Source of the DNA: Candidatus Peregrinibacteria bacterium
GTDB taxonomy: Bacteria; Patescibacteriota; Gracilibacteria; Peribacterales; Peribacteraceae
Length of the DNA: 64,000 nt
Assembly (NCBI GenBank): GCA_037143575.1
Contig: JBAWYM010000001.1
Location: forward strand, 8,327 to 72,326
Direction of reading: 5' to 3'
The stretch's first letter is position 1. Each line of letters begins with the position of its first letter. The translations under genes were made by a program, and so were the position numbers. The notes beneath the pieces were generated by a model. That model was not told where the DNA came from. It saw nothing but the letters and a program-made list of their open reading frames with translations, and made no database searches. This document shows, in pieces, positions 5,577-63,926 of the stretch.

Positions 5577-5618
5577 GCATCATGTCACAGTGAGCGTAGT
5601 CGAACTGCGACATGATGC
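5577..5618. repeat. Palindromic REP-like element
   Basis: GCATCATGTCACAGTGAGCGTAGTCGAACTGCGACATGATGC. Confidence 0.8.
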
Positions 5619-21172: not shown

Positions 21173-21246
21173 TACCCCCGGCAGGACTCGAACCTGCGGC
21201 CAACAGGTTAGAAACCTGCTGCTCTATCCAACTGAGCTACGGGGGC
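21170..21246 (-). tRNA. tRNA-Arg (anticodon TCT), CCA encoded
   Basis: Hand-folded cloverleaf: acceptor GCCCCCG/CGGGGGT, D arm GCTC-AGTTGGATA-GAGC, anticodon loop TTTCTAA, T arm GCAGG-TTCGAGT-CCTGC. Confidence 0.9.
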
Positions 21247-21289: not shown

Positions 21290-21321
21290 CTGTCATCCTG
21301 AGCGTAGTCGAAGGATGACAG
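21290..21321. repeat. Palindromic REP-like element CTGTCATCCTGAGCGTAGTCGAAGGATGACAG
   Basis: Read directly from the sequence. Same family as 1628-1760. Confidence 0.85.
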
Positions 21322-21405: not shown

Positions 21406-23442
21406 CTAACCCTCCCCCATCACTTTCTCCGCAGCCTTCCTCACCCGGATCACAAATTCCGGCTGGAAGAATTTGCTGAGCATCGGACCGGAGAATCCGC
21501 TCTGCCGCAGTCCGAAGAGCTCTCCGGGGCCGCGGATTTTCAAATCGATTTCTGCAAGGATGAATCCATTATTGTGCTTCTCCATCGCTTTGAGTCGCTG
21601 CGAATGGGATTGCTCGGGAGTGGTGGTGAAGAGGAAACAATGACTTTGGAAATCACTGCGCCCCACTCTCCCGCGAAACTGATGCAGCTGAGCGAGGCCG
21701 AAGCGCTCCGCTCCTTCGATGAGAATAATCGTCGCATTGGGGATATCGATTCCCACTTCGATCACCGAGGTCGATACGAGAATATCGAACTTCCTGTCCT
21801 TGAATTCCCGCATGATCCGCTCCTTGTCCTTGGGAACCATCTGCCCGTGGAGTGCGATGATCCGACGTCGCGGAAAGCTCTGTTTTAGGCGCTTCTCCTC
21901 ACTCTCCACACTCTTGATCTCTAGCATCTCCGGGTCCTTGGATTCTCCGATGAGCGGGCAGATGACGAAGACCTGCCTCCCCTCCCCTATCTCGTGATCC
22001 ACGAAGTGCTCGACGGTGATGCGATCGAGCGGAGAGGTGACTTTGGTGTGAATGACTTTGCGATTCCCCGGCTTCTCCAGGAGAACCGAAAGATCGTGAT
22101 GGCCGTACGCGGTCAGCGCCAGAGTGCGCGGAATGGGAGTAGCAGTCATGGCGAGGAAATGCGGATTGCCCTTCTCCGTGAGCTTGGTGCGCTGCTCCAC
22201 GCCGAAGCGATGCTGCTCGTCAACGATTACAAGCTTGAGATCGTGGAAGGACACGGAATCCTGGATCAGTGCGTGTGTTCCGATCAGAACGTCAACCGTC
22301 CCGAGAGCGATATCATGGCGGACGGCGTCTGCTTCCCCTTGCGTGAGCGATCCGGTCAGCAAAGCAACACGCGGCATCCGGTAGGCTGGAACAGGCTCCC
22401 CTGCCCTCTTGCGCTCCTGGAGAAAATTATGCAGTCCGATCAATGTACGCCCGACCGTTTCGCAGTGCTGCCTCGCAAGCACTTCGGTGGGAACCATGAA
22501 GGCACACTGGCCTCCGGTCGAAAGCACATTCGCCATGACTGCCGTCGCCACAAGAGTTTTTCCAGAGCCGACATCCCCTTCCAGTAACCGCGACATCGCG
22601 ACGTCCTTCTCCATGTCTTTGAGAATTTCGTAAATCGCGATCTTCTGACTAGCCGTGGGCGTGAACTTCAGCGAGGCAAAGAACACTTTGATCAGCTCCA
22701 CATTCATCGGGATCTTCAGGCGTTCCTGCCGTACACGCTGCCATTCCTGACGACGATGGAGCGCATCCATCTGCATGTTGTAGAGCTCCTCGAAGGCGAT
22801 GCGCTCGAGGGCTTTTTCGACATCTTCGGGTTTGTCGGGGAAGTGTAGCGTTTCGATGGCCTCGGTTCGGGTCATCAGCTTCTCCTCGGCCAGAATCTCC
22901 TTCGGCAATGTCTCCGGAAGATTCTTCATCAACGGTCGCACAAGTGCCATCTTCTCGCGGAGCCACTTGGTATTGATGATGGCGTGCTGCGGATAAAGAG
23001 GAACCAGACGTCCGGCATGGACGAGCGGCTTGGAACCGGCCTTCTCGAATGTCGGGCTCTTCATCTTCAGCGCGTACCCGTCTTCCACGATCTTGCCCGT
23101 CAGGACGACCTCGTCATCTTCCTTGAGCATCCGCATGATGTGCGGCTGGTTGAACCACGTCACTTCCAGCGACGCTCCGTCACTGTCGGTGAGGAGCGCT
23201 TTCACGAGCCTCTTGCCTGCCCGCAACCGCACGAGCTCAATGCGGCTGATCGTTCCGCGCACCGTTGTCTTCTCATTGAGAACAGCCTGCTCGATGGTGT
23301 GAATCTGACTGAGGTCTTCGTGGCTGCGTGGCAAAAAGAGAATCATCTGCTCCACCGTCCTGATTCCCATCTCCTCCAATGCCAGCACGTGCGCCGTCGT
23401 CGTGTGCAGAACGGTGCTGAGAGGAGAGGTGAGGTCCATCAT
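21406..23442 (-). CDS. recG: ATP-dependent DNA helicase RecG
   Basis: GDVGSGKT (Walker A), VIVDEQHRFG (DEQH) and an N-terminal wedge-like region. Length is typical of RecG. Confidence 0.9.
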   Translation of the reverse strand: MMDLTSPLSTVLHTTTAHVLALEEMGIRTVEQMILFLPRSHEDLSQIHTIEQAVLNEKTTVRGTISRIELVRLRAGKRLVKALLTDSDGASLEVTWFNQPHIMRMLKEDDEVVLTGKIVEDGYALKMKSPTFEKAGSKPLVHAGRLVPLYPQHAIINTKWLREKMALVRPLMKNLPETLPKEILAEEKLMTRTEAIETLHFPDKPEDVEKALERIAFEELYNMQMDALHRRQEWQRVRQERLKIPMNVELIKVFFASLKFTPTASQKIAIYEILKDMEKDVAMSRLLEGDVGSGKTLVATAVMANVLSTGGQCAFMVPTEVLARQHCETVGRTLIGLHNFLQERKRAGEPVPAYRMPRVALLTGSLTQGEADAVRHDIALGTVDVLIGTHALIQDSVSFHDLKLVIVDEQHRFGVEQRTKLTEKGNPHFLAMTATPIPRTLALTAYGHHDLSVLLEKPGNRKVIHTKVTSPLDRITVEHFVDHEIGEGRQVFVICPLIGESKDPEMLEIKSVESEEKRLKQSFPRRRIIALHGQMVPKDKERIMREFKDRKFDILVSTSVIEVGIDIPNATIILIEGAERFGLAQLHQFRGRVGRSDFQSHCFLFTTTPEQSHSQRLKAMEKHNNGFILAEIDLKIRGPGELFGLRQSGFSGPMLSKFFQPEFVIRVRKAAEKVMGEG

Positions 23443-41796: not shown

Positions 41797-41876
41797 TTGC
41801 CAATTTGTCACAGTGAGCCGTGTCGAACTGCGACAAATTGGCAAATGTCATGGTTCGACACGGCTCACCATGACAT
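41797..41876. repeat. Composite two-hairpin element, copy 2
   Basis: TTGCCAATTTGTCACAG...CTGCGACAAATTGGCAA followed by TGTCATGGTTCGACACGGCTCACCATGACA. Confidence 0.85.
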
Positions 41877-53667: not shown

Positions 53668-54264
53668 ATGACTTCGCCCCTCTTCATCGTCCTGGAAGGC
53701 CCCGATGGTGCAGGAACCACCAAGCACAGTGTCATCCTGGAAGAACGCCTGAAGCGCGAAGGGCACACAGTACTGAGAACATTCGAACCTACGGACGGGC
53801 CCATCGGTGCGCAGATTCGCGCTGACCTGCGGGCAGGGAATCTCAGCGATCCGGAGGCGATTCAGCGAAGATTCTGCGAAGATCGTGCGTGGCATCTGGA
53901 ACATGTCATCGAACCGGCCATGAAGAATGGCACGATCGTCATTAGCGACCGGTATGCCGCATCCACCATCACCTACGGTCTGGCTCTCGGCATCGACCGC
54001 GCCATTCTGGAAGAAATGAATGCCGCATTTCGAAAACCAGATATTCAGCTTTTCTTGTTGCCGCCATTCGCAATGCTTCAGGAGCGCCTCGCACGACGGG
54101 AATCCACCGATGCCTTCGAGAAAGCGGAATTCCAGAAGAAGGTCTATGCGGAGTACCGGAGGCTGGCGGCGGAAGATCCTTCTATTATCGTCATTGATAC
54201 GTCGGGGGAGCTGGAAGTGGTGGCGGATATTATTTTGAAAGCGACGAAGAAGAATGACGAATGA
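53668..54264 (+). CDS. tmk: Thymidylate kinase (variant P-loop)
   Basis: FIVLEGPDGAGTTKH...TFEPTDGPIG...ISDRY pattern of dTMP kinase. The P-loop reads GAGTTK rather than G.GK[ST]T. Confidence 0.8.
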   Translation: MTSPLFIVLEGPDGAGTTKHSVILEERLKREGHTVLRTFEPTDGPIGAQIRADLRAGNLSDPEAIQRRFCEDRAWHLEHVIEPAMKNGTIVISDRYAASTITYGLALGIDRAILEEMNAAFRKPDIQLFLLPPFAMLQERLARRESTDAFEKAEFQKKVYAEYRRLAAEDPSIIVIDTSGELEVVADIILKATKKNDE

Positions 54265-54410
54265 CCAAGGACCAAGCACCAATGACCAGGGAAATCCCAA
54301 ATCAAAAGCACCAATGAGACGTTATATCATTTTTGATTTGGTCATTGGTCATTCCTTGGTCATTGGAATTTGGGATTTGGTCATTCCGCGGTCATTGGGA
54401 TTTGGTCATT
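54255..54410. repeat. Inverted pair of GGTCATT/TGACCAA short arrays with only ~14 nt between the arms
   Basis: The left arm aatgaccaaggaccaagcaccaatgaccagg... faces the right arm ...tttggtcattggtcattccttggtcattgg.... Spans the tmk stop to the rlmN stop. Confidence 0.8.
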
Positions 54411-55515
54411 CCGCTGCGGCTAATTGTCCACACGCCGCCGCAATATCCTCCCCCATCGTCCTCCTCTCCGTGACATCCAATCCATGCCGCAGGATTTCGG
54501 CTTTGAATGCCTCGATGTTGTCGCGCTTCGCCGCGAAGTAAATTTTGCCGGAGACCGGGTTTAAGGGAATCACATTGAGCTTGGGCGCTCCGGCACTCTT
54601 GATGTACCGCACGAGCTCCCGGGCGTGGTCCAGGGAATCATTCACGCCGCTGATCAGCGTGTACTCGAAGGTGACGTAGTGACGGCGATTGCCCTTCTCC
54701 ACTTCGTAGCGCTTGCACCAGGTCGCGAGCTTGGTGAGGAAGTCGGGGACAGTGGAAGGAACGATTGCTGTACGACGCTTTTGATCGGCGCTATGAAGAG
54801 AAACCGCGATGCGCACATTGGGCCAGTCGGGATCGGTGAGGACTTTCTCGAGCGCAGGCAGAATGCCGACGGTGGAGAGCGTGATGTGCGTGGGACCGAT
54901 GTCGGCATACGTCGTCCAGAGGTGAATTGCCTTCTTCACGTTCTCGATGTTGTTGAAGGGCTCACCCATGCCCATAAAAACGACGTTGCTAATGCGCAGC
55001 ATTGTCATCCTGAGCGGAGTCGAAGGATGACAATGCGTGTTCATGGTTCGTTCCTCGACACGGCTCGGAATGACAGGACAATGCAGCAGATAGTTATTCC
55101 AAAACCGTATCTGATCCGCGATCTCATCCGAAGATAAATTCCGCTTGAATCCCATCGCTCCGGTTGCGCAGAACACGCACCCCATCGCGCAGCCAATCTG
55201 GGAGGAGACGCACACCGTCCACTGATCCTTGGCATTGGCCATCAGAACCGTCTCGAAGAGCTGCCCATCGCTTCCTTTCAACAATGCCTTGAACGTATCG
55301 CCGCGCTTGCTCTCGAGGACCTTCGAAGCCTCCACGGAAATCCACGGAATCTCCCGCGCGATGACCTCACGCATGGGTTTAGGGAAAACGGTAACGTCCT
55401 GCCAGCTCTTGAAATGGGGGCTAAAGACTGCCTCTTCGATCTGCCGGGCTCTGAACTTCGGAACCTTGGGAAAGAGTTCCGCGAATCGCTCGGTGCGGGT
55501 AACGGGGACGGGCAT
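54406..55515 (-). CDS. rlmN: 23S rRNA/tRNA adenine-C2 methyltransferase RlmN (radical SAM) carrying an in-frame repeat insertion
   Basis: CAMGCVFC (Cx3Cx2C), VVFMGMGEPFNN and C-terminal Cys region. ATG at 55515. Confidence 0.9.
   Translation of the reverse strand: MPVPVTRTERFAELFPKVPKFRARQIEEAVFSPHFKSWQDVTVFPKPMREVIAREIPWISVEASKVLESKRGDTFKALLKGSDGQLFETVLMANAKDQWTVCVSSQIGCAMGCVFCATGAMGFKRNLSSDEIADQIRFWNNYLLHCPVIPSRVEERTMNTHCHPSTPLRMTMLRISNVVFMGMGEPFNNIENVKKAIHLWTTYADIGPTHITLSTVGILPALEKVLTDPDWPNVRIAVSLHSADQKRRTAIVPSTVPDFLTKLATWCKRYEVEKGNRRHYVTFEYTLISGVNDSLDHARELVRYIKSAGAPKLNVIPLNPVSGKIYFAAKRDNIEAFKAEILRHGLDVTERRTMGEDIAAACGQLAAAE
55000..55075. repeat. Two REP-like palindromes inserted in frame within rlmN
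   Basis: CATTGTCATCCTGAGCGGAGTCGAAGGATGACAATG plus TCATGGTTCGTTCCTCGACACGGCTCGGAATGACA. Translated (minus strand) as ...HCPVIPSRVEERTMNTHCHPSTPLRMTML.... Confidence 0.8.
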
Positions 55516-55538: not shown

Positions 55539-55620
55539 TTTCCGTAGCTGGGGTTCTGCTTCCGTAGCTGGGGTTCACCTGTAGTGAGCTTGTCGAACTA
55601 TGAACCCCAGCTACGGAAAC
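55539..55620. repeat. TTCCGTAGCTGGGGTT x2 with inverted AACCCCAGCTACGGAA partner
   Basis: Read directly from the sequence. Lies in the divergent rlmN/folD intergenic region. Confidence 0.8.
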
Positions 55621-61756: not shown

Positions 61757-62737
61757 ATGGATAAGCACGCTCTCCTCTCAGAAGTGACAGCACTCGCTCG
61801 CTCAGGAGCGCTCTCGCAATCGGAATTGAATCAGGCATTCCAGGCAGGCTCTTCTACTCACCCGCACGGCATGGCTGAGCGGATTCGCTTCACCGAGATC
61901 CTCTACTACCTTGGCGGGTTCATCATCTTCCTCGGGCTCGTAATCCTTCTGGGTCAGAATTGGGAACATCTCAACTCCATCGCTCGGATCCTGATCACGC
62001 TCGGCAGCGGTATTGCCGCGTATTTCATGGCCGTCCTCTTCCTCCAAAACGCTGCGGCCTCCCGTCTTTCCATCGCCTTCTTCTTCCTTTCCGCCATCCT
62101 CCTGCCGATCGGCATCTTCGTCACGTTCAATGAGGCTGGGTTCTCCACGGATGATTCAGGGATCAATACCGTCCTCTCGGGCATCCTCTTTGCAGTGTAT
62201 CTCGCATCATTCTTCCAGATGAAGCGCACACTGTTCCTCTTCTTCTCAGTGGTCTTCGGCACATGGCTCTTCTTCGCCTTCACGAGCTTCCTCATGAGTA
62301 CGAGCGGTATGGACTTCGGTTGGCGCTTTTATGCGTACCGGATTCTCCTCACAGGACTCAGCTATGTCCTCCTCGGTCAATCATTCCGTAGCAAGAACCT
62401 CAGTGGAGATCTCACCGGCTTCCTCTTCGCCACCGGGACATTCGGATTTCTGGGTGCTGCCCTGACTCTCGGAGGATGGACCCCCGAGCAATCGATGATT
62501 TGGGAGCTCCTCTTCCCCGGTATTGTCTTTGCGATCATGTTCCTGAGCATTCCTCTCAAGAGCCGATCTTTCCTGATTGTCGGAGCAGGCTATCTGATGG
62601 TGTACCTCGTAAAGATCACATCCGAATACTTTTCGGAGGGTTTGGGCTGGCCACTCGCGTTGATCCTTCTCGGATTTGCTATCATCGGAGTCGGGTATTA
62701 CGCATACCATCTGAATAAGAAATATCTGACGACGTAA
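61757..62737 (+). CDS. Polytopic membrane protein (hypothetical)
   Basis: Soluble N-terminal ~45 aa followed by about 9 hydrophobic helices. Confidence 0.55.
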   Translation: MDKHALLSEVTALARSGALSQSELNQAFQAGSSTHPHGMAERIRFTEILYYLGGFIIFLGLVILLGQNWEHLNSIARILITLGSGIAAYFMAVLFLQNAAASRLSIAFFFLSAILLPIGIFVTFNEAGFSTDDSGINTVLSGILFAVYLASFFQMKRTLFLFFSVVFGTWLFFAFTSFLMSTSGMDFGWRFYAYRILLTGLSYVLLGQSFRSKNLSGDLTGFLFATGTFGFLGAALTLGGWTPEQSMIWELLFPGIVFAIMFLSIPLKSRSFLIVGAGYLMVYLVKITSEYFSEGLGWPLALILLGFAIIGVGYYAYHLNKKYLTT

Positions 62738-62745
62738 CTCAGAAG

Positions 62746-62784
62746 ATGTCATTCAGAGCCATGTCGAGGAACGAACCATGACAT
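62746..62784. repeat. REP-like palindrome ATGTCATTCAGAGCCATGTCGAGGAACGAACCATGACAT
   Basis: Same subtype as the second element inside rlmN. Confidence 0.8.
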
Positions 62785-62834: not shown

Positions 62835-63926
62835 ATGCGCGTCCTCGTCGCCATGTCCGGGGGTATCGATTCCAGTGTGGTGGCCTGCCTGCTAAAAGAG
62901 CAGGGGCATGAAGTAATCGGAACCCACTTCCACCTCTGGCAGGATCCGAAGGCACCGGCACTCGCTACCCTTCTGCCGAGCAAGTGCTGTACGGCGCAAT
63001 CCTTTGCCCGTGTCCGGAAAGTAGCGAAGAACTTGAATATCCCACTCCACATCCTGGATCTGCAGAAAGAATTCAAGAAAGAGGTGGTAGATCCGTTCAT
63101 CGCTGCGTACAAGAAGGGACTGACTCCGAACCCCTGTATACTCTGCAATCGCCACTTCAAATTCGATCGATTGCTCACGCTTGCTGACAAGCTCTATTGT
63201 ACGCATGTCGCGACCGGTCACTATGCCAGAATCCTTACGAGAAGGAGGGGTAATATTTCATATTCAGCCCTACTGGAAGCCTCGGACAAGAAGAAAGACC
63301 AGAGCTACTTTCTGTATCGACTCACCCAGAAAGAACTAAAGCGCACGCTGCTCCCTCTGGGGAACATCACGAAGAAGAAGGTCTTCTCGTTAGCAGAAAA
63401 GTTCCAGATTCCTTTGAATCGAAGCAGCTATCGCGAAAGTCAGGATCTCTGCTTCTTCCCGGAGAAATCCCCTGATGCCTTCCTGCATCGCTATCTGAAG
63501 GGCGTCAAAGCAGGAGTCATCCTTTCGAAAGATGGAGTGACACTTGGAATGCATGAAGGACTGCCTTTCTACACCATCGGGCAGCGCCGTGGGCTCCATG
63601 TAGGGGGCCAAATGATCCCACTGTATGTCCTCAAGAAAGAACACAAAAGTAATGCATTAATTATCGCTCCATTAAGGGATCTCCGTGATAACAAAGTTTT
63701 AATCCGATCATGCACATTCACTCGAGGAAAGCTCGTGCATTCTTCCCGTTTTTCGCTTTCTGCCCGTATCCGATCGCAAGGGAAGAAGATGAAGGGAATG
63801 CTGCGAAAGCGCTCACGGGATTTTCTCTTCACTACAACGAAACCCATGATGAGTATTACCCCTGGTCAATCCCTAGTCCTCTATCAAGGGAATGAGGTAT
63901 TGGGAGGAGGAATAATTGAAACATGA
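62835..63926 (+). CDS. mnmA: tRNA 2-thiouridine(34) synthase
   Basis: VAMSGGIDSS PP-loop, a TPNPCILCN region and typical MnmA length. Confidence 0.9.
   Translation: MRVLVAMSGGIDSSVVACLLKEQGHEVIGTHFHLWQDPKAPALATLLPSKCCTAQSFARVRKVAKNLNIPLHILDLQKEFKKEVVDPFIAAYKKGLTPNPCILCNRHFKFDRLLTLADKLYCTHVATGHYARILTRRRGNISYSALLEASDKKKDQSYFLYRLTQKELKRTLLPLGNITKKKVFSLAEKFQIPLNRSSYRESQDLCFFPEKSPDAFLHRYLKGVKAGVILSKDGVTLGMHEGLPFYTIGQRRGLHVGGQMIPLYVLKKEHKSNALIIAPLRDLRDNKVLIRSCTFTRGKLVHSSRFSLSARIRSQGKKMKGMLRKRSRDFLFTTTKPMMSITPGQSLVLYQGNEVLGGGIIET

Follow-up and report, generated by a model that had tools for sequence, protein, structure and literature searches.

A doublet of REP-like hairpin repeats in frame within rlmN of a Peribacteria genome

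Palindromic repeats that lie in frame within bacterial genes have been described before. The Rickettsia palindromic elements (RPEs) are inserted in frame into many Rickettsia genes (summarised in PMC10969869), and Di Nocera et al. (2013) reported repetitive extragenic palindromic sequences (REPs) of 20-40 nt within open reading frames (ORFs) of several phyla, mostly as dimers encoding 20-30 residues (PMC3733652). In two Xanthomonas species, different REPs were found at approximately the same site of recB (PMC3733652). Here, a 64,000-nt stretch of a Candidatus Peregrinibacteria genome was analyzed (the window; C1:8327-72326 of a 1.64-Mb, 85-contig metagenome assembly with 53% G+C, rated 99.7% complete), in which the gene rlmN carries two hairpin elements in frame. 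These belong to a repeat family marked by the conserved hairpin loop GAGCnnnGTCGA. The insert is very probably a REP-type hairpin doublet, one unit forward and one reversed, that was incorporated into the DNA encoding the loop between helix alpha1 and strand beta2 of RlmN and is carried there as a tolerated passenger. In-frame insertion is not a new behavior, since in-frame REP doublets encoding 20-30 residues have already been described (PMC3733652), and the case fits the description of in-frame palindromic repeats; with this behavior already in print, no principle is changed. The locus is unusual mainly because the same RlmN loop was filled independently many times in relatives.

The GAGCnnnGTCGA family resembles the intragenic REPs (PMC3733652) in consisting of 20-40-nt stem-loops in many copies, which are mostly intergenic, often arranged as inverted dimers and in a minority of cases in frame; there as here, dimers that encode 20-30 residues make up more than half of the inserts within genes. 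Whereas those REPs carry a terminal GTAG/CGTC tag, no such tag is present here: conservation lies in the loop, the feet of the stem vary, and GTAG or CGTC was found solely within the loops of some subfamilies (GAGCGTAGTCGA, GAGCCGCGTCGA). Separate CCGTAG... palindromes are present in the genome. The host also differs, being a genome of the candidate phyla radiation (CPR; Peribacteria), and here one enzyme loop was filled in at least seven lineages by at least three hairpin families. A literature search for the GAGCnnnGTCGA hairpin family or for REPs in CPR genomes returned no paper.

With RPEs, the family shares the presence of in-frame palindromic repeats in many unrelated housekeeping genes, apparently compatible with fold and function; such insertions were found in rlmN and in ten further frames with Pfam domains. 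The likeness to RPEs drawn in the original prediction is apt for this behavior, but it does not extend to size, and no relationship in sequence is expected: RPEs of about 100-150 bp, which occur in Rickettsia and encode a conserved peptide module, are set apart by description from the 28-40-nt, often doubled units seen here. As in the REP, bacterial interspersed mosaic element and REPIN (REP doublets forming hairpins) systems of E. coli and Pseudomonas with their REP-associated tyrosine transposases (RAYTs) (PMC3116915, PMC3337134), the repeats are short, high-copy (about 100 or more), mostly extragenic palindromes with frequent inverted doublets, and the genome encodes RAYT-family proteins above the NCBIfam cut-off. 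It differs from them in that no RAYT gene was found flanked by the GAGCnnnGTCGA family, the arrangement of a REPtron, and in having seven RAYT-like matches instead of the usual single copy. Identical hairpins occur here across many phyla, whereas REPIN populations are described as lineage-specific and vertically inherited. Miniature inverted-repeat transposable elements, or MITEs, are likewise small, non-autonomous, repeated and occasionally intragenic with in-frame fusions. However, they typically measure 70-300 bp and produce a target-site duplication, while the elements described here are much shorter, lack terminal inverted repeats distinct from the hairpin and show no visible duplication in comparisons of filled and empty sites.

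The gene and its insert were mapped as follows, in coordinates of the window.

54406-55515, minus strand: rlmN coding sequence of 369 codons plus stop, for a radical S-adenosylmethionine (SAM) 23S rRNA/tRNA adenine-C2 methyltransferase (from the ORF and its translation)
54997-55083, minus strand: insert of 29 codons, His145-Leu173, between helix alpha1 and strand beta2 (from linker comparison and the AlphaFold model)
54999-55036, no strand assigned: element A, whose perfectly paired 13-nt arms enclose the 12-nt loop GAGCGGAGTCGA (+ strand), reversed relative to the coding strand and read as CHPSTPLRMTM
55042-55076, minus strand: element B, in which the imperfect inner hairpin TCATTCC-GAGCCGTGTCGA-GGAACGA precedes the right outer arm GAACCATGA; oriented with the coding strand, translation VIPSRVEERTM

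The original prediction had placed two palindromes within the rlmN ORF without disruption of the frame, and both were located, at 55000-55035 and 55042-55076, with the translation confirmed. The first, CATTGTCATCCTGAGCGGAGTCGAAGGATGACAATG, is element A, in which one extra base on each side completes the 13-nt stem. Elements A and B form an inverted pair, and the frame is free of stop codons across both (translation ...HCPVIPSRVEERTMNTHCHPSTPLRMTML...; junction peptide of the insert region TMNTHCHPSTPLR). The figure of about 29 extra residues holds for the codons that span the insert, but the net gain is 22 residues (66 nt), because about 7 of the 29 stand in for the ancestral xRPxLPQ linker; from Trp139 to Arg174 the linker measures 34 residues, compared with the usual 12. 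Against the family consensus, 28 of 28 nt of the insert are identical. Element B corresponds to the inner unit plus the right outer arm of a self-nested composite hairpin, and one exact 29-nt copy of it was found elsewhere in the genome along with several copies at 1-2 mismatches. Recurrence in intergenic DNA, also predicted, was borne out by two copies in the window, and shuffled-sequence controls for elements A and B gave 0 matches.

21292-21319, plus strand: copy of element A with 1 mismatch, intergenic, between a tRNA gene (21173-21246) and an ORF of 678 amino acids (21406-23442)
62748-62776, plus strand: copy of element B with 2 mismatches, intergenic, between the co-directional ORFs 61757-62737 and 62835-63926

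The start of rlmN was set at the first ATG of the conserved part; a 483-codon ORF reaching up to 55857 is a spurious upstream extension across an intergenic repeat. The top PDB matches of the product are RlmN and Cfr, and the orthologues named by their sources are RlmN. Solved RlmN/Cfr structures align to residues 16-136 and 174-367, with the alignment breaking at 137-173. Every column invariant in 120 homologues is retained, including the CX3CX2C motif (Cys109, Cys113 and Cys116) and the likewise invariant Cys102 and Cys362, which are taken to be the mechanistic Cys118 and Cys355 of E. coli RlmN. An AlphaFold2 model built on the 120-sequence alignment reached a mean pLDDT of 92.3 and a pTM of 0.90. 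In this model, residues 146-174 form a low-confidence coil (block means of about 51, below 50 at 157-164) between a helix (129-145) and a strand (175-180) that runs into the MGMGEP motif. This agrees with the predicted position of the insertion at a short linker just before the conserved VVFMGMGEP strand, the linker being 34 residues long compared with 11-13 in most homologues. In radical-SAM barrels, alpha1 and beta2 are generally joined at the strands' N-terminal end, on the other side from the Fe-S cluster and the SAM site.

With an added length divisible by three and no stop codon in either element, the gene would be read straight through. The predicted product is an RlmN whose flexible loop, located at the N-terminal end of strand beta2, is extended by about 22 residues, and judging from the general barrel architecture, this end of the strand would face away from the Fe-S cluster and the SAM site. 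With its catalytic residues intact, the enzyme most likely retains activity despite the insert. The hairpins may land genome-wide and be purged from genes, with the only survivors being those that are in frame and in a permissive loop; such survivorship would account for the repeated filling of the same loop in relatives.

The genome-wide census that had been proposed as a check supports this background. Family members share the loop GAGCnnnGTCGA and stems of the form GTCAYnn/nnRTGAC, in which the inner 2-3 stem bases covary (CC/GG, GG/CC, AG/CT, CCC/GGG) and the outer stem extensions differ. By inspection of the sequence, three of the six reading frames of the canonical hairpin are open. A strict family pattern gave 119 matches in the genome and 0 with the reversed-pattern control; a generic pattern gave 8 matches in the window and 0 in shuffles. 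Among 36 genomes of the same GTDB family, 0-17 strict matches were found in each, and in other families of the class the pattern was present in 1 of 24 genomes. In a stem-checked census of 145 copies, based on a crude longest-ORF gene map (1403 ORFs, 88% coding), 98 were intergenic (68%), 33 lay at ORF ends and 14 deep within long ORFs, although non-coding DNA accounts for just about 12% of the genome. Copies are strongly under-represented in genes, yet the family persists in loops. Adjacent pairs with a gap of at most 40 nt numbered 26, and 24 of these were in +/- orientation, the rlmN insert being one such pair. An Rfam scan of the window returned three tRNAs only, with no Rfam family matching the hairpins.

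In-frame copies were not confined to rlmN; at least 12 further genuine genes of this genome contain them. Ten further long ORFs with in-frame family copies all matched Pfam domains (10/10), and more such frames lie outside the Pfam scan. They encode a GT1 glycosyltransferase, a LysRS-DUF2000 fusion, RibD, a HisA/HisF fusion, SodA, Dus, RsmB/F, ProC, a 2-oxoacid:ferredoxin oxidoreductase and TsaB. Aligned to the manganese superoxide dismutase of Bacillus (2rcv), SodA has a single clean gap of 17 residues that coincides exactly with the hairpin, and ProC contains about 39 residues, including two hairpins, that are additional to its solved homologues.

The RlmN loop was then compared among homologues. 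The linker, measured from the conserved Trp to the Arg of RISNVVFMGMGEP, was measurable in 118 of the 120 closest homologues and is 11-13 residues long in 100 of these 118. At the DNA level, all ten rlmN genes read from the same taxonomic family (seven species-representative genomes) have a linker of 12-13 residues; the extra residues are absent from most orthologues. A protein-query genome search for rlmN gave a match in only 13 of 61 relatives, which is read as low sensitivity and not as absence of the gene. All internal insertions of at least 5 residues in the 120-sequence alignment fall in this linker (core columns 143-150), and in a maximum-likelihood tree calculated with the linker masked, the insert-bearing sequences occupy at least seven separate positions. 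The loop is filled independently in at least seven lineages, from at least three hairpin families. Filled and empty forms were paired among close relatives as follows.

P0004 (filled) and P0007 (empty): 92% protein identity
P0013 (filled) and P0010 (empty): 87.5% protein identity
P0027 (filled) and P0030 (empty): 87.7% protein identity
P0026 (filled) and P0031 (empty): 97% protein identity, 94% in DNA

In DNA, the P0004 insert is a forward and reverse pair of the same GAGCGTAGTCGA family, and the inserts of P0003, P0013 and P0027 are TCTCTCCC...GGGAGAGA hairpins. Judged from its peptide TRSLPLTRERSSGGAS, the P0023 insert looks like the latter type. In P0015 and P0026 the loop of the inserted hairpin itself encloses a second hairpin, and in P0060 the insert comprises several hairpins of the CCTCTCCTT/AAGGAGAGG type. 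The closest orthologue of the gene studied here, L009, shares 79% protein identity and carries hairpin B at the same place and in the same orientation and frame (peptide VILSRVEEG, compared with VIPSRVEER here), after which different elements follow in L009. As a separate observation, a pair of filled and empty rlmN alleles (L039 and L040) is about 100% identical over the 3' ~600 nt and clearly more diverged upstream of the insert; this pattern is suggestive of a mosaic formed by recombination, its breakpoint lying close to the insert.

Several results weigh against the interpretation of the insert as a tolerated REP-type doublet. The TIGR00048 score of the product is 261.9 bits and does not reach the curated equivalog cut-off of 290. 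No target-site duplication was visible in the filled/empty pairs of relatives, and the flanking linker codons were altered too, so that the borders are not clean cut-and-paste scars. For the lineage studied here, no closely related empty site that would define the exact borders or a target duplication was found. Within hairpin B, 8 of 9 third codon positions are identical between this gene and L009, as compared to 52% in the whole gene (binomial ~0.03); the excess may point away from simple neutral drift, to constraint, gene conversion or recent insertions made separately. With respect to a mobilizing enzyme, family hairpins flank none of the RAYT genes of this genome, and a tblastn search with its RAYT and DUF559 proteins against 109 hairpin-bearing loci elsewhere found 0 RAYT genes and one DUF559 gene.

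Other explanations were weighed on the same evidence. Repeat-induced misassembly, by which intergenic REP copies would have been placed in rlmN, might be expected in an 85-contig metagenome assembly, in which contig breaks tend to fall at repeats, and the alignment of an independent contig from another assembly, L036, ends on both sides in repeat-rich DNA. Such an artefact is nevertheless highly improbable, since the insert is stop-free and preserves the frame, this independent contig, 1,392 nt long and from the ENA assembly ERZ27300140 (with read sets possibly shared), is 100% identical over 1278 nt including the insert, and the same insert-bearing rlmN frame occurs on contigs of 73,752 nt (NCBI/Joint Genome Institute) and 73,856 nt (ENA) with different called starts. 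Moreover, L009 stems from another sample and has hairpin B at the same place and frame, and more than 10 other orthologues from unrelated assemblies carry hairpin inserts in this loop. The insert could also be the first lesion of a decaying pseudogene or of an inactive RlmN. The low TIGR00048 score would fit this, and loss might be tolerable, since rlmN is dispensable in E. coli; for the same reason, its designation as essential in the original prediction is too strong. Decay is improbable, however, given an intact frame of 369 codons, the retention of all residues invariant in the 120 homologues, including the five mechanistic cysteines, and a fold predicted at high confidence. A second intact rlmN, which would have favored decay of this one, was sought in the 99.7%-complete genome and not found: the gene is single-copy. 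Hairpin B, in addition, is common to a lineage only 79% identical in protein, which indicates that the gene stayed open long after the insertion. That the insert is an old lineage-specific RlmN loop with a chance likeness to the repeats is refuted: the general variability of the loop is all that speaks for it, while the identity of the insert to the family consensus, the intergenic copies only 1-2 bases off, the empty shuffles and the short linkers (12-13 residues) in genomes of the same taxonomic family contradict it.

Explanations that assign the loop or the insert a more specific role were considered as well. The linker may be a targeted landing site, recognized through a DNA feature such as GAG-CGN (Glu-Arg) codons resembling the 5' half of the family loop, and the roughly 30 nested hairpin-in-loop composites may mean that hairpin loops are preferred targets. 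In line with this, all insertions in the 120 homologues lie within about 7 residues of each other, about 30 of 33 listed pattern matches are a hairpin inside a hairpin loop, and further cases of nesting are the P0026 insert and the intergenic element upstream of rlmN. Mimicry of the REP loop by the linker codons was set aside as weakly supported, with GAGC present in only 4 of the 12 empty linkers read and being too common a word to define a target. Furthermore, the position of insertion within the linker differs from case to case, hairpins of three unrelated families occupy it, and survivorship in the sole permissive loop explains the pattern without targeting, which makes targeting unlikely. 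Co-option of the insert, either as an mRNA hairpin with an effect on translation or decay or as a peptide loop that is useful to RlmN, would be in accordance with the strong local RNA fold (-32.9 kcal/mol, z = -3.4, for 54990-55085), the third-position identity in hairpin B and the persistence of inserts in several clades. It appears quite unlikely all the same: insert sequence and family differ completely between lineages, 100 of 118 homologues have no insert, the peptide is predicted to be disordered, and the search for a terminator-like feature at the rlmN hairpins (a terminator or promoter role) revealed none. The conservation of hairpin B, in turn, is explicable by gene conversion with the ~100 genomic copies or by recent re-insertion. 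The interpretation as a tolerated REP-type doublet is preferred.

A broader reading extends this interpretation of a tolerated doublet and is put forward only as a speculation. The GAGCnnnGTCGA-loop hairpins, of which identical 28-mers are present in Peribacteria, other CPR groups, Bacteroidota, Ignavibacteriales, Spirochaetes, Omnitrophota and others, might together form an undescribed cross-phylum mobile family, moved by neither an adjacent RAYT nor a DUF559 nuclease and inserting preferentially into single-stranded hairpin loops; in gene-dense CPR genomes they might routinely occupy the loops of proteins, the alpha1-beta2 loop of RlmN being one that they enter repeatedly. In such a scheme, the preference for hairpin loops would account for the ~30 self-nested composites.

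The RAYT-type tyrosine transposases of the genome are the obvious candidate mobilizers, although no link to the GAGCnnnGTCGA family was found. Seven matches to Y1_Tnp were obtained in the genome, and three proteins scored above the NF047646 (RAYT) cut-off; stand-alone RAYT proteins are encoded on contigs C2, C11 and C18. A link to DUF559 was rejected for this genome, where the two DUF559 genes have hairpins of another type, CCCTCTCCC...GGGAGAGG, on either side.

The locus offers a natural experiment with selfish hairpin DNA in an 88%-coding genome, purged from genes except for in-frame copies in permissive loops. The repeated loop filling, the cross-phylum spread of identical hairpins and the self-nested composites go beyond the routine. 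Since alleles of one enzyme with and without an insert exist at 87-97% identity, the insertion tolerance of RlmN is directly testable. For annotation, inserts push good genes under curated HMM cut-offs (TIGR00048 here), and intergenic copies lengthen ORFs spuriously, as in the 483-residue call for rlmN.

Further members of the family and a related palindrome were located in the window.

1629-1691, no strand assigned: same-family inverted doublet (family pattern search)
41807-41874, no strand assigned: second same-family inverted doublet (family pattern search)
2363-2390 and 5584-5611, no strand assigned: single family copies (family pattern search)
55541-55620, no strand assigned: composite palindrome directly upstream of rlmN, intergenic, with arms TTCCGTAGCTGGGGTTCA and a same-family GAGCTTGTCGA hairpin inside its loop (sequence read directly)

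In the region 1629-1740, several incomplete copies of the right half of the hairpin (...CTACGCTCAGGATGA...) follow the full inverted doublet in tandem. The palindrome upstream of rlmN, with the GAGCTTGTCGA hairpin nested in its loop, belongs with a second palindrome family that has a GTAG-containing arm, CCGTAGCTGGGGTTC. Its half-sites number 27 genome-wide and those of a related family, TCCGTAGGACAGGAA, 68; one copy is in frame within a RAYT gene on C2 (C2:60908-60951, L008). The spacer between tmk and the 3' end of rlmN (54243-54410) contains short tandem repeats with periods of 7, 14 and 32 nt, and the match to contig L036 ends there.

Genome-wide, about 30 self-nested composites were seen, in which the loop of an outer GTCAYnnTGAGC...TCGAAnnRTGAC hairpin encloses an inner one built on the same motif (CTGTSCTGAGCCGGGACGAAGSATCG or TGTCATTCCGAGCCGTGTCGAGGAAC); examples lie at C50:5747, C23:6855 and C14:10697. 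In other assemblies (loci L041-L149), exact GTCATGGTGAGCnnnGTCGAACCATGAC hairpins occur, among the matches listed, in Peribacteria, Saccharibacteria, Parcubacteria, Bacteroidota, Ignavibacteriales, Caldithrix, Spirochaetes, Omnitrophota, Thermodesulfovibrionales and Zixiibacteriota.

Some transposase and nuclease genes showed features of their own. A gene for a DUF559 (Vsr-like endonuclease) protein (L150, C57:4663-4980) has CCCTCTCCC...GGGAGAGG hairpins on both sides, and these resemble the rlmN-loop hairpins of P0003, P0013 and P0027 (and of P0023, from the peptide). At C41:1315-4503 (L002, minus strand), a RAYT/IS200-like Y1-transposase domain lies in frame within a leucyl-tRNA synthetase ORF of 1062 codons; it contains the HUH motif MPDHLHVL, scores 67 bits to PF01797 and is preceded by a duplicated Ser-rich segment, being either an in-frame mobile gene inside leuS or a domain fusion. 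At C42:11321-12640 (L003, minus strand), a RAYT domain (99.7 bits, NF047646) is fused in frame to an RdgB/HAM1 NTP pyrophosphatase, and the RAYT part contains an in-frame perfect palindrome with 26-nt arms (...TCCGTAGGACAGGAA...).

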